Below are positions 33,885-60,018 of a stretch of DNA of 64,000 nucleotides, one piece after another. Under the pieces are notes generated by a model. That model had not been told where the DNA came from. It searched no databases and saw only the letters and a list, made by a program, of their open reading frames with translations. The translations under genes and the position numbers were made by a program. Positions within the stretch are counted from its first letter, which is position 1; each line of letters opens with the position of its first letter. Origin of the DNA: Eledone cirrhosa. Lineage: Eukaryota. The stretch is from NCBI GenBank assembly GCA_964016885.1, contig OZ024740.1, forward strand, positions 183,024,001-183,088,000, read 5' to 3'.

Positions 33885-33940
33885 ACTGCTATATATATTT
33901 CGATGATAGCCATTGAATAGCTATGACCTCATCAGGCAGT
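33885..33940 (-). ncRNA. Minimal type I hammerhead with palindromic ATATATAT stem III (element about 33845-34330)
   Basis: Stem I ACTGC/GCAGT; CTGATGA; stem II GGT-c-ATAGC/GCTAT-c-ATC; GAA-ATATATAT-A. 33890-34125 is homologous to the reverse complement of 58800-59035. Confidence 0.85.
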
Positions 33941-34679
33941 TATTCAGTTCTTAGATATGCCAGCTCTGTGTTTATCTTATTGATGGTATCAGAGCCTTGG
34001 ACATATGAACTTGTTAGGAATAATTTAATGTTGTCAGTAGGAATAGTCTTGATTCTCATTGGTCAGTTTGTATATGGTAGTAGGATTGGTATTTGACCTC
34101 AAAGAGGCAGGTGGTGTTGTAAAGTTCAAACCGTCAGGCAAGATGACAATAGTTCCATATGACTGATTTTCACAAAAAGCATTCCTGGTCAGATATATAT
34201 TCAATTAAGCTTAATAGTATGATATAAATACTACAGGTCATTCTTAAATTGAGGAATTTATGTGGAGTGGTGCTACTGAAATTTATGGTTAGAGTAGAAA
34301 ATTTACAAATAAAAAGACTTATGTAGCTTGGCTTGCACGTACACTAACACCCACCTCCACAGACACACACACACATCCACACATACAAAATGGGGGGTGG
34401 TAATACTTAAAATATTGGTAAGAGTCCAATACTTAGATAGTTTAGAAAATTTAGAAATAAAAGGTTTATGCTGGTTGACTTGTACATACACTCACACATA
34501 CCCCCTCAGACATACCCCCTCAGACACTCACACATCTACACACACAAATCCATACCGGTGTGTATATATATATATATGTATGTATGTATGTACGCACAAC
34601 CATATATATATATATATAAAATATATATATATACACGGAACATACATATATATATATATAAAATACACATACATATACA

Positions 34680-35948
34680 TCTCGATCATGTCCCTTAGGG
34701 TTATAGCTGATCCTATGGCTGTGGGACGCCTTAGCTAGCGCTGAGTTATAGTAATCAGCGTTACTATTGAAGATCTCTTTATTAGCCGACAAGTTAGAGA
34801 TCCTGTCAGAGACACTCTTAACTACGGCCTTAACTATAGATCTAGGGTGATTAGACACGGCGTTGATATACACCAGCTTCTCATTGGGTTTATGATGTGG
34901 GTGGTGTAGCTTGGTGTTGATGTTGAGGGTGGTGTCCAGGAAATTCACTACTTTTCTATTGGGTTCCATCTCTACCTTAAGTCCTACCTTGCTAAAGAAG
35001 TGCCTAATTCTCCTCTTCAAATTTTCGACCATTGTGGTGCTATGGTCCACTACGCTGAAGAGTGCGTCGTCTCGGTACAGCCCACCACCCAGGTTGGGTA
35101 TTTCTCTCCTGATCACGTAGAGTATGTATATCCCAACCAAGTCCGTTAGCTGCTCGGAGTCACTGGAGCTCATTGTAATGTCAAACTTATTTGGCCAGTC
35201 GCTCCGGGTCCATATGTCTCCACCGAATCGGATCAGGGTCTTTCTGGCGGCGTGTATGATTCGGACCTCGTCGCGTGTTAGGTCTGTCCCATTCATCGCG
35301 AATATGAGTGCCTTGTTCAGGATTATGGGCGACATAGAAGAGTAGTAATTGTTGATGTCTAGTTGTATGAAGCTAGTCCTATGTTTGTCAGGTAAAAATG
35401 TAAACCAGTCCAGCACCTGGCTGATGCAGGACCAGAGTTGTAACCTTATTTTACTCTTAAGTGTCGCCAGGATCCTATCTAAAATGCTTTTGCTAATAAC
35501 CCCCATCTCTGACCGGGAGGGGGCTATCAGTCTGACAGGCAGGTTAGACTCGAAGTTTGGTTTGTGGTCCTTAAAGGTAATCCTCGGCTCCCTTGGTTGG
35601 TATGGGGCCGTCCTATCATCTATACCAAGACCAGATACGATCTCATAAGCCTTGATGTTGATATCCTCCAGGGTAGCCTCGGCCGTTTTTTTTGTAGCTT
35701 TTTCTCAATTTCCTGAGGATTAGCTCATGGTAAAGTTGAACGTCTATGTTGTAAAGGTTGTTGGTTTTGTCGGCATAGGCGAGTATTCCTGTAGATGCCT
35801 TAAGCTCGGTAATTCCATTTTCCAGTCGTCTAAGGTACTCTCGACCCCGGTATGGTTGGTCGGAAAATTTGATGTTGGAAATGATGCCAATCATTTCGTT
35901 CTCGAACTCTTTCAATAGTCTGTTGTAGTTGGGGGATTCTTCTTGATA
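34680..35948 (-). pseudogene. Third PLE RT fragment from a different clade
   Basis: ADKTNNLY, LDINNYY, FDITM...LVGIYIL, GLYRDD, VNFLD, KPN..YINAVSNHP; bounded by TA-rich arrays. Confidence 0.88.
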
Positions 35949-36246: not shown

Positions 36247-37017
36247 ATTACAATTTTAAAAAATATGATCAACACTAACGTGTTGTTTTTTGCAAAATGA
36301 CAATAATTTTTTAGCCAGATAGAAATACCTTAATTCAAGTACATATAGTCCTCCTGTATCGATCTAGAAGATATTAAATATTAAATCTATACTTACAGAC
36401 GTAAAATGGCAACTGCCTGGTGCCTAGACAAGTTTAAATTTCAAAATTCAAACCTTTTCAGCAGATCGGTCGGAACTTCAAAACATAAACCTGTTTCACA
36501 AGGGATGGTATACTAATGAAATAATTAATTAATTACGGAACAACTATTTATAAAATAATTATTAGTGAAGTAATCAATTTTCTGTGATTTTTAATAGGCA
36601 CCCAGAAATTATAGTTACTTCTCCTAAGATAATAATCTTAAGACTGATCTGTCGCAAGCCTAATACATGTGATTTGCCACACGACCTTCGCAGCATTCTG
36701 GCTCATATCCATGGCGCTAGAAGTAACAGCCGTAAATATGGGATTATGAATTCAGCTCTACCGAAGGAGCAGATTTGTTTCAATTTAGTAGTCAATTACA
36801 ATTATTAAGCTCTAAGAAAATACTTTTGAGCATTACATTACAATTTAAAAAAATATGATCAACAGTAACGTGTTTTTTTTTTGCAAAATGACAATAATTT
36901 TTTAGCCAGATAGAAATACCTTAATTCAAGTACATATAGTCTGCCTGTATCGATCTAGAAGATATTAAATATTAAATCTATACTTACAGACGTAAAATTG
37001 CAACTGCCTGGTGCCTA
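36247..37017 (-). mobile_element. Retrozyme-like unit, about 590-nt period, 1.3 copies, starting at the HHR cleavage site
   Basis: Direct repeats 36247-36426 and 36837-37017; degenerate HHR at 36419-36602; homologous to 59115-59870; (TA)n on both sides. Confidence 0.78.
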
Positions 37018-40290: not shown

Positions 40291-40356
40291 TATTTTGTCT
40301 GAGGAAGGCATAGCATATTGTTAATATGATATCCCTGAAATATATATAATGAAATA
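40291..40356 (+). ncRNA. Minimal type I hammerhead in a ~205-bp (TA)n-flanked unit (40195-40400); copy at 42373-42438 and truncated copy at 38431-38472
   Basis: Stem I TATTTTGT/ATGAAATA; CTGAGGA; stem II AGG-c-ATA-g-CATATT/AATATG-a-TAT-c-CCT; GAA-ATATATAT-A. Confidence 0.82.
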
Positions 40357-40393
40357 AATATGGTTTTATAAATATAGTTTCCATTTATTTAAT

Positions 40394-42005: not shown

Positions 42006-42475
42006 ATATATATATATATATATATATTAACACATATATATACATATATATATACATATATGTTTACATGTATATATATATATACATATATATCCATATA
42101 TATCCATATATATATACATATACATATATACATACATAAATATATACATATATACATACATATACACATATATACATATATATATACATATATAAATACA
42201 TATACACATATATACATATATATATATATAAATATAGATATACACATATACATACATATACACATATATATATATACTGCCAAATCAACTTTTCAAATAC
42301 AAGTCGATGTTGTTACGGTATGTCAAATCTATTTATCTATAAATCTATTTATCTATAAAACTGTTTATATTGTATTTTGTCTGAGGAAGGCATAGCATAT
42401 TGTTAATATGATATCCCTGAAATATATATAATGAAATAAATATGGTTTTATAAATATAGTTTCCATTTATTTAAT

Positions 42476-42512
<37 letters not shown>

Positions 42513-42857
42513 TCATCATCATCATCATCATCATTTTTACGTCCGCTTTTCCCTGCTTGCAAGGGTGGGACGGGACTGATTCTGGCTTGATTTCTACAGC
42601 TGGATGCCCTTCCTAACACCAACCTCATTTACAGTGAGTGCTGGGTGCTTTTTTGCCGTGGCACCTCCACGACCACTTTGCAGTGGAATGATATGGACCC
42701 CAGTCCTATCATCTCATTTCTACAGCTGAGTAAACTGGAGCAATGTGAAATAAAGTGTCTTGCTCAAGGAAACAACACATCACCCAGTCTGAGAATTGAA
42801 CTCACAACCTTTCGATTGCAAGGCCAATGCTCTAACCACTAAGCCATGTGCCTCCAC

Positions 42858-48088: not shown

Positions 48089-48137
48089 ATATATATACGA
48101 TATTAATAAATGGAAACTAGATTTATAAAACCATATT

Positions 48138-48202
48138 TATTTCATTATACATATTTCAAGGATACCAAGTTAAATTATGGTATGCCTTCATCAGATAAAA
48201 TA
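48138..48202 (-). ncRNA. Minimal type I hammerhead (inverted copy of 49056-49120)
   Basis: TATTTTAT-CTGATGA-AGG-c-ATACCA..TGGTAT-c-CTT-GAA-ATATGTAT-A-ATGAAATA; lies in inverted repeat 48093-48228/49030-49165. Confidence 0.82.
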
Positions 48203-49055
48203 AAATATATATCAGTTTTACAAATAAGCATTGATCGCATATATGCATAATTTTAACAGCCATAAATGCATGAAAGTTAATCCTATATATTTATATATAT
48301 ATATATTGTGAATTTTTTATTTTATAACACAATGAATGTATAGCAGTAATAAAAAAATCACTTATGCTCTGTATGTATATATTATATGTGGGAGTAGATA
48401 TAATGTCTATTTTCTGAATGTATGTGTATATATGTATTTATGTATCTTTGCCTATGATAGGTAACCTCTATAGCAATATACATTTTGTGATGTTTAAATT
48501 CCAAATTTTAGTATATTGATCTCAATTTTTAAACTAAATATCTAATCATAATTAAACAATGATTAATTTCTCATATTATATACGTATATTCCATTCATGA
48601 ATATTAATATTTCTAATTTTATTTATTCGTTTCATCTCAATTGTTAACTCAACTTAATATGACATGACTTAAGGTTTTCGTTCTCTCCCCCTCTCTCTAT
48701 CTCTTATTTCTCTCTCTTGAGTTTTTTCTCTCTGTCTGATGGTTTGATATCTCTCTGTTGCTTTCCTCTGTTTTCTTATATTTTCCTTTATTCTTCTTTT
48801 CTTTCCTCTTTTTCTTTATTTATCTCTCCCTTTTTCTCCACGCTTTTCTCTCTCTCTCCGTTTTTTCTCCACGCTTTTCTCTCTCTTTCCGTCTTTTCTC
48901 CATGCTTTTCTCTCTCTCTCCGTCTTTTGTAATTGTCCTTAACACTAAGACTTACTAAAATAATATAAACAAACCACTATCCTGATGTCCTCCAAAAGTA
49001 ATGGTCGCATTTTGAAAGGATACGTCATACTTATTTGTAAAACTGATATATATTG

Positions 49056-49120
49056 TATTTTGTCTGATGAAGGCATACCATAATTTAACTTGGTATCCTT
49101 GAAATATGTATAATGAAATA
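49056..49120 (+). ncRNA. Minimal type I hammerhead, same family as 40291
   Basis: Intact CTGATGA and GAAA; stem II differs in sequence from the 40291 copy but still pairs. Confidence 0.82.
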
Positions 49121-49247
49121 AATATGGTTTTATAAATATAGTTTCCATTTATTAATATCGTATATCTACTCCAAATACTTGTCGAGTGCTTTATGTCAGT
49201 TATAAAAATATTTACTTGTTGTATCCCAACAATTTAAATAGAACTTT

Positions 49248-58799: not shown

Positions 58800-59035
58800 A
58801 CTTTACAAAACCACCTGCCTCTTTGAGGTCGAATACCAACCCTACTACCATCTACAAACTGACCAATGAGAATCAAGACTATTCCTGCTGACAACATTAA
58901 TTTATTCCTAACAAGCTCATATGTGCCAAGGCTCTGATACCATCAACACTATAAACACAGAGCTGGCATATCTAAGAACTGACTAACTCCCTAATGAGGT
59001 CATAACCATTCAATGGCTATCATCGAAATATATAT
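58800..59035 (+). mobile_element. Second copy of the 33.9-kb HHR element, ending in its TA stem III
   Basis: Homologous to the reverse complement of 33890-34125; CTAATGA (mutated)..GAAATATATA. Confidence 0.8.
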
Positions 59036-59040
59036 ATATA

Positions 59041-59870
59041 TACAATATAATTGAATAAACAAGAAAGATGAACACTAATATAAACATACATGTGTTCGAA
59101 TCGTAAGGACCAAATATAGGTATGTTATTTTTCTTTATTTTTCTTAATTTAATAATTAAACTTAAGGATAACAAACTATATTGCTGTAGTTAGTATTTTT
59201 TCACCCGAGCAAATTTGGTCGTTACGATTCGGAGACATGTATGTTTATATTAGTGTTCATCTTTCTTGTTTATTCAATTATATTGTACAGCTCGGAAAAG
59301 CTTTTTTCTTAGAGCTATTTAATTGTAAAAGACTACCCTGAGTTCTTAACTCAATATATATTTGTCGGCTCCATCATGTAGAGCTAATTTTTATTGTCTT
59401 GACAGCCAGGCTGCTATTTTTAGCGGCAGGGAATTTCGAGACAAGCTGGGTTACGAATGACACGTGCGATAATTAATATCGTACATAATTCATTCTCTAA
59501 TATTTTTAGAAGTGAAAGGATCACTAATTTCTCAACAACTACTGATGAGCAGAGAAACGTGAGAACTTCACTTAATAAGTCGTTGCGGAACAGTCTCCAA
59601 CACTGTCTAGTTGTTACCAGGAATTTTTGCCCTATAAAGCTATGCTATTTTTCTTAATTTAATATTTAAAGTTAAGGATAACAAACCATATTGCTGTAGT
59701 TAGTATTTTTTCACCCTAACAAATTGGCTCCTTACGCTTCGAACACATGTATGTTTATATTAGTGTTCATCTTTCTTGTTTATTCAATTATATTGTACGG
59801 CTCAGAAAAGCTTTTTTCTTAGAGCTATTTAATTGTAAGAGACTACCCTCAGTTCTTAACTCAATATATA
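59041..59870 (+). mobile_element. Retrozyme-like element: 510-nt period, about 1.45 copies, 75-bp 5' inversion, (TA)n 3' end
   Basis: Direct repeats 59136-59360 and 59646-59870; 59041-59115 is the reverse complement of 59213-59287; HHR at 59534-59615. Confidence 0.85.
59534..59615 (+). ncRNA. Type I hammerhead ribozyme (GUC site at 59607; A13G variant)
   Basis: Stem I AACAACTA/TAGTTGTT; CTGATGA; stem II GCAG/TTGC; GGA-ACAGT ctccaac ACTGT-C. Confidence 0.85.
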
Positions 59871-59902
59871 TATATATATACATACATATATATATATATA
59901 TA

Positions 59903-60018
<116 letters not shown>

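Follow-up and report, generated by a model that had tools for sequence, protein, structure and literature searches.

Dispersed copies of a non-coding hammerhead family, probably a non-LTR retrozyme, have Penelope-type ends in the genome of Eledone cirrhosa

Two described systems stand closest to the element reported here, the non-LTR retrozymes of metazoans and the Penelope-like elements that carry an endonuclease. For animal retrozymes, a return to DNA by Penelope enzymes using a circular template has been proposed, and not shown, in the literature compared here. Penelope insertions are described as having an adjacent inverted, 5′-truncated copy and a tail that is usually found on one end only (Craig et al. 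2021, 10.1101/2021.04.23.441226); the tail is explained as the stretch between two internal reverse transcriptase (RT) start sites, and at AT-rich DNA a predicted dimer is described as cutting both strands and extending them (Frangieh et al. 2024, PMC11167929). In the hammerhead core, U3-A8 replaces C3-G8 in natural ribozymes, Penelope-associated ones included, and U4C is known from nature as a weakened variant (Perreault et al. 2011, PMC3088659; Cervera and de la Pena 2014, PMC4209133); C3G/G8C is reported as an engineered partial rescue mutant (PMC11167929).

The window analyzed here is a stretch of 64,000 nucleotides from E. cirrhosa (assembly GCA_964016885.1, contig OZ024740.1, positions 183,024,001 to 183,088,000, forward strand), in whose coordinates all positions are given unless stated otherwise. 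The element at 59041-59870 consists of an inverted arm followed by 1.5 units of a 510-base repeat, set in (TA)n. A first-pass annotation, made from the letters of the window, had read it as inversion-R-X(HHR)-R-(TA)n, and self-alignment bore this layout out, with (TA)n on both flanks: the direct repeats R at 59136-59360 and 59646-59870 (both +) are offset by 510 and 93% identical, the second terminating at what we term site 2. The inverted piece at 59041-59115 matches 59213-59287 and 59723-59797 at 96%. It is present as annotated, but it is not simply a 5′ inversion; it is a second arm (59041..59114, −) whose outer end is a fixed site, site 1, followed by (TA)n. This short arm overlaps by ∼5 bases the start of the long arm (59110..59870, +), which comprises ∼1.5 units of the 510-base monomer, ends at fixed site 2 and then runs into (TA)n. 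The start of the long arm was corrected from 59136 to ∼59110-59115 and falls ∼21 bases short of the upstream cut site. When inspected for a target-site duplication, both element ends merged into (TA)n, namely a (TA)n/(CA)n tract at the right (59864..60016) and a shorter (TA)n at the left (59028-59042). The copy is inserted in the (TA)n that terminates a Penelope-type fragment at 58800-59036 (+). This fragment is the end of a very abundant element, is homologous to 33890-34125 (−) and has a small hammerhead of its own, in which stem III is a TATATA run.

Genome-wide searches of the 3.0-Gb assembly placed the window unit in a family, here family A, with a unit length of 510-520 bases and 591 candidate places on many contigs, of which 40 were scored and showed 93-96% identity. 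A second family, B, is represented in the window at 36247..37017 (−) and has a unit of 591 bases and 808 candidate places. Homology between these two window elements had been claimed from collinear blocks, and it holds: BLAST aligns 87 bases at 75% identity (E 5e-8), all four named blocks are found in both elements, and local alignment of the whole elements gives z values of 9.4 and 19.9 under two scorings, and under neither of them did any of 300 dinucleotide shuffles attain the observed score. One sub-comparison, of R with a short 3′ piece of B, is weak (z 3.5 and 1.2). The superfamily's most conserved block, GGCTG-TA-TT-TAGC, lies at 59409..59424 (+), as judged from genome motif matches and alignment, and a motif common to A and B, made up of this block with motif 2 (below), has 1015 matches in the genome and 0 in the reversed control. 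Clustering of 88 distinct segments gave A, B and at least seven further groups with stem-I sequences of their own, so that the superfamily has at least nine non-coding hammerhead families. The units are AT-rich, carry no LTR and repeat as partial tandems; no coding frame of at least 170 codons was found inside A or B units at 60 loci, and no RT or GIY-YIG reading frame within the units. Four copies of another type I hammerhead family, unrelated to A and B by BLAST and with a minimal stem III and an AUA cut triplet, lie at approximately 40291-40365, 42373-42447 and 49056-49130 (+) and 48130-48204 (−).

The window B copy is a single arm, a 591-base monomer plus 184 bases, which starts exactly at the predicted cut site and terminates at site 1. 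Its hammerhead (36419..36602, −) has the U3-A8 core, a U-U at the base of stem II and long stems II and III, and its core is itself broken, reading TTAAAAA against TTGAAAA in family B (G5A). Homology with loci L063 and L152 led us to prefer a U-U first pair in family B over the alternative of two extra bases inserted ahead of stem II. Just downstream of this copy, across (TA)n, lies an RT fragment at 34523-35704 (−) from a second Penelope-type group (32,032 candidates).

The family A hammerhead in the window (59534..59615, +) is of type I, with an 8-pair stem I (59534-59541 and 59608-59615), a long stem II, a 5-pair stem III, the core CTGATGA at 59542-59548, GGAA at 59587 and a predicted cut after 59607. 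It had been called near-canonical. That is true of the family, whose majority core, CTGAGGA/GAAA/GTC, is that of a type I hammerhead with canonical GAAA, but the core of the window copy is not intact, having A13G at 59588. Folded in isolation, the window hammerhead gives no signal over shuffles (z 0.41), and for a typical copy the fold with the ribozyme shape sits 1.5 kcal/mol above the minimum. The 150 Rfam matches listed, of 217, include no hammerhead family and are almost all microsatellite-driven miRNA matches. A weak tRNA-like Rfam match elsewhere in the window (42785-42848, −; 29.9 bits, barely over the cut-off) falls within a 435-base tandem duplication.

Compensatory change, by contrast, supports the fold, as had been argued from the two window elements, where stem I is 8 bp in both, with both partners different at 5 of those 8 pairs. 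The covariation becomes strong once more families are added. In an alignment of 11 natural hammerheads, both-side changes occur in 12 of 14 pairs, comprising all eight of stem I, the 3:8 core pair, two of three in stem II and one of two in stem III; stem II is long and variable across families. Paired cells make up 95.9%, against 70.7% in shuffles (0 of 500 reach the observed value) and 28-45% with slid partners, a shuffle figure that is not a formal probability, since the 11 rows are related and stem I was a condition of their selection. Family A has C-G as its 3:8 pair, and B and two other families have U-A. In sister family D (570 pattern matches), the 100 matches listed, counted by hand, have G-C in 60, U-A in 22, C-G in 10, G-U in 2 and no pair in 6, so that 92 of the 100 have a Watson-Crick pair, in three forms. 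A single superfamily in which the catalytic 3:8 pair is naturally C-G, U-A or G-C provides a ready test set for core tolerance. Members of family D (for example, G000 L138:1666-1760, L149 and L153) have an AUA cut triplet and the same end motifs as A and B. A compact U3-A8 hammerhead was also seen in a short tandem region at L081:493-545 (+); a Penelope-type frame of 938 codons lies nearby on the other strand.

The ends of the copies are confined to two places. Family A yielded 52 internal 3′ ends, 42 of which run into (TA)n, and all 42 stop, in window terms, at 59283 or 59361; the internal copy of site 1 is at 59279..59283 (+; 25 of the 42 ends, in 30 loci) and that of site 2 at 59357..59361 (+; 17 of the 42). 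Independent public contigs from one sample have loose (AT)n ends at both places. The corresponding figures for family B are 39 internal 3′ ends, 32 running into (TA)n and 30 of those at its fixed sites. Site 2 of family A lies 78 bases downstream of site 1, and these 78 bases are the Penelope-type "tail." We then counted whole insertions. The 93 distinct A insertions comprise 56 with two arms and 37 with one; among the two-armed, 40 have one end per site, none has both ends at the same site and 16 have at least one end at neither, and the one-armed end at site 1 (16), site 2 (16) or elsewhere (5). In a rerun under a stricter filter, one end per site was found in 38 of 55, and two ends at a single site once more in none. 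Thirteen of the 24 B insertions are two-armed, 10 with one end per site and 3 with an end elsewhere. Two-armed insertions having both ends at fixed sites thus follow the one-end-per-site rule in 40/40 cases in A and 10/10 in B. The "inversion" is a second arm, and the two-site end rule is the Penelope tail signature. The first-pass annotation had the fold and the homology right, but it missed the second fixed-end arm and left the class of the element unnamed.

Taken together, we consider it probable that the stretch is a dispersed copy of a non-coding hammerhead family of 510-520 bases, a non-LTR retrozyme, likely copied into (TA)n by the RT-endonuclease of an autonomous Penelope-like element. 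In such a scheme, a locus with at least two units would be transcribed, the hammerhead would cut at GUC and the monomer would be ligated to a circle. A dimeric Penelope protein would bind the two GCTC...GAGCT motifs described below and break AT-rich DNA, and on either side of the break one subunit would begin cDNA, each a few bases upstream of the motif it has bound. Both cDNAs would go the same way round the RNA, past the cut junction, stop at variable points and be joined, giving back-to-back arms of unequal length.

The expectation that GGAA reverts to GAAA in the family consensus was confirmed, GAAAC being present in 19 of 22 regex-matched motifs from the first 30 loci. Those loci had been picked by likeness to the window, and the counts were therefore redone on pattern-picked loci, where position 13 in 69 units is A in 54, G in 9, T in 4 and a gap in 2. 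The majority letter at 59588 is likewise A in the contigs of three public runs (one sample). Of 92 variable sites on a tree of 68 units, A13G shows the most homoplasy, with 10 steps and carriers in three subfamilies, a step count that may be inflated by the star-like shape of the tree. Its descent as one inherited subfamily was rejected, the carriers not being nearest neighbors and being present in three subfamilies. A general signature of RNA-editing scars was likewise rejected: in family A, an excess of A>G over T>C holds for all changes together (p 0.006) and is lost when rare changes are taken alone (p 0.54), and family B leans the opposite way. A13 also shows A>T changes. The recurrence of A13G may reflect tolerance of, or selection for, weakened cutting, or site-specific editing.

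Changes in the hammerhead core lower cleavage, which is the basis for expecting an A13G copy to be weakened. The window copy is likely a dead-end daughter, since its only ribozyme is probably weakened by A13G and its last unit is not followed by motif 2. Taken alone, with 1.5 units and one ribozyme, it falls outside what has been defined as an "active" retrozyme, for which two ribozymes are needed (10.64898/2026.07.22.740005).

We also asked what form of template the copies record. Among 174 matches to the sequence just past the cut site in family A, 15 lack the preceding C and comprise, by eye, 10 point changes in the ribozyme and 5 starts with unrelated upstream DNA; most arms therefore read through the cut site (169 of 174 matches, taking 129 unfetched matches as read-through). 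In family B, 4 of 24 insertions, the window's included, start within 4 bases of the cut site. The excess of starts at the cut site is modest, with ∼0.6 expected per position by a rough estimate, or ∼1.7 allowing three positions of TA ambiguity, and it suggests, from sequence, that cutting may take place in the animal. Pieces of the same insertion are less divergent from one another than from other loci (5.2 versus 8.0% in A and 2.5 versus 3.4% in B), and minority letters are shared in 244 of 1033 cases within one insertion and 14866 of 263588 between loci. Folded as a circle, the natural monomer has a z of −4.6 against 40 shuffles. A ligated circle, as proposed for retrozymes, would most simply explain the read-through, the likeness of pieces within an insertion, the circle fold and the arrays.

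The alternative that fares best is that a Penelope enzyme acted on an uncut or partly cut linear multi-unit transcript of the retrozyme, with weakened ribozymes favored because they are read through. In its favor, the read-through of most arms and the unusually frequent changes at A13 (13 of 67 units) and U4 (9 of 69) fit it as well as they fit a circle; these changes recur in all three subfamilies, with A13G the most homoplastic; in the window, the B copy begins at the upstream cut site and the core inside it looks dead; and ∼8 of the 93 A insertions hold, by eye, two ribozyme units and could be sources. For the anole element, moreover, unprocessed RNA is reported as the main substrate in vitro, and hammerhead mutants were without effect on in vitro insertion (PMC11167929). 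However, the complete ten-letter core is kept in 52 of 93 read-through units, and outside the hot spots A13 and U4, changes at G5, A6, G8, A9, A14 and A15.1 number 0-1 in 69 units, and inactivation in general is therefore not favored. A linear template would also imply that each generation can only shorten and that site-2 ends lose motif 2, so that by our reasoning the arrays would need renewal. We regard this alternative as unlikely and favor a circular template.

A second alternative holds that the copies are 5′-truncated ends (pseudo-LTRs) of an autonomous Penelope element and not an independently spreading unit. The inverted arm, the tail and the hammerhead are all pseudo-LTR traits, and frog retrozymes are described as homologous to pseudo-LTRs (10.64898/2026.07.22.740005). 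In the 93 A and 24 B insertions, however, sequence upstream of R leads back into the same unit, up to 3-6 times, and never into a coding frame. At the family level, units with one type I hammerhead apiece stand head to tail at L106, L029, L121, L127 and L210 in family A and at L045 and L038 in family B. Arrays of 3 to 6 units retain the fixed ends, among them L106 with three units and the B array at L045 with about 4-5 full units plus partial end units. These head-to-tail units largely refute the pseudo-LTR explanation, which we judge very improbable, although a retrozyme may have originated from a Penelope end by internal deletion. The B array spanning L045, L048, L049 and L057 (G000 C1714, ∼162200-165250) includes, besides two long partial units, a second arm of 28 bases, and its units differ by 1.5-3% in a star-like manner. 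5′ inversions and truncations are also known products of LINEs, in whose twin priming the second primer sits at variable internal places. RTE/LINE-like frames (named by eye) are common in the window, but a LINE enzyme inserting a SINE-like repeat, and inverting it by ordinary twin priming, is a highly unlikely source, as the outer ends are fixed, mutually exclusive in 50/50, internal to the unit and without poly(A), and no LINE sharing the retrozyme's 3′ end was found in any locus examined.

A retrozyme moved by a Penelope-like enzyme calls for an autonomous partner, and the genome is rich in GIY-YIG/RT elements, with 10,597 GIY-YIG candidates and young Penelope-type families having frames of 800-1200 codons, some above 1000. 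Among ∼70 Penelope-type loci examined out of the more than 10,000 GIY-YIG candidates, none had the shared motifs or homologous ends. The best profile matches in three Penelope-type groups examined were at E ∼4 or worse, and the significant matches at Penelope-type loci proved to be separate retrozyme copies in neighboring (TA)n. One young and abundant Penelope-type family is represented in the window at 454-2255 (−), a fragment that Pfam does not recognize, and elsewhere at L244 (G000 C28:57246500-57256400) and other loci; this family is marked by intact frames of 1000-1218 codons, by an asparagine-rich insert and by two-armed copies.

What the families share at their ends is a short duplicated motif. 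Motif 1 (GCTC...AGAGCT; 59290..59316, +, with a second copy at 59800-59826) is a predicted hairpin 6 bases past site 1, and motif 2 (GCTCC...GTAGAGCT; 59368..59385, +) is a predicted 4-pair hairpin 6 bases past site 2; the role we give to both below is inferred. Read by eye in eight family groups, ends fall 1-11 bases before a GCTC...GAGCT-type motif, of which there are two per unit. This holds for 42/42 ends in A, 30/32 in B, 11/11 in C, 8/8 in F4, 3/3 in F9, 9/11 in D, 3/3 in D2 and 1/2 in F6. The two ends are ∼61 bases apart in B and as many as 103 in D, and so they track the motif and not a fixed length. All 9 of 9 aligned rows conserve motif 2, which can fold into its four pairs, with no both-side changes in those rows; the motif hairpins are thus conserved in sequence without covariation. 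We infer that the motif is the enzyme's binding site, folded as a hairpin. More tentatively, and with somewhat less than even confidence, we propose that the duplicated GCTC...GAGCT is an RNA signal read by a dimeric Penelope enzyme, one copy per subunit, which would fix two start sites a few bases upstream. Such a signal would explain both the tail and the inverted arms, and would allow the circular hammerhead RNAs of a whole superfamily, whose 3:8 pair would come in three interchangeable forms, natural G3-C8 included, to be copied into the genome from the two sides of a single break. The motif is thereby a candidate short signal just after both start sites, in families that have otherwise diverged, and a protein-free unit of 500 bases with the Penelope signature offers a compact substrate for a precise mutation test of the choice between two start sites.

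The retrozyme class itself is known. Titles and the beginnings of abstracts in the literature contained no paper on cephalopod retrozymes or on tail-type retrozyme ends, and the supplements of the 2026 preprint could list such families. As described by Cervera and de la Pena (2020, PMC7229834) and by Li, Clavereau and Pollet (2026, 10.64898/2026.07.22.740005), metazoan non-LTR retrozymes are likewise non-coding and AT-rich, with head-to-tail units of a few hundred bases, one type I hammerhead in each and no LTR; they likewise co-occur with Penelope elements, and their circle is likewise predicted to be strongly self-paired. Family B shares its U-U at the base of stem II with the axolotl HHR_Amex2 described for retrozymes. 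The monomers of 510-590 bases lie above the 170-400 bases given in one of these accounts (PMC7229834) and within the 51-972 bases given in the other (10.64898/2026.07.22.740005). The families reported here, known from genomic DNA, differ from those described in occurring mostly as dispersed two-armed copies of 1-2 units and not as satellites, and in having oversized stems II and III. The natural hammerhead core variants compared here include U3-A8 as a natural form, whereas G3-C8, found in 60 of the 100 listed copies of family D, is described as an engineered rescue mutant. Penelope-like elements with an endonuclease (PMC11167929; 10.1101/2021.04.23.441226) likewise form partial tandems with an adjacent inverted, truncated copy and a tail on one end, and are described as having two internal start sites downstream of the hammerhead cut and AT-rich or (TA)n targets. 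In contrast to them, the units here have no RT-GIY-YIG frame, the tail is ∼61-103 bases in place of 30-40 and the hammerhead is full-size and not minimal. To the retrozyme class, the present families add family-wide covariation, a strict two-site count and a duplicated end motif; fixed Penelope-type ends and the end motif are features that set them apart from the retrozymes as described in the portions of the metazoan accounts compared here.
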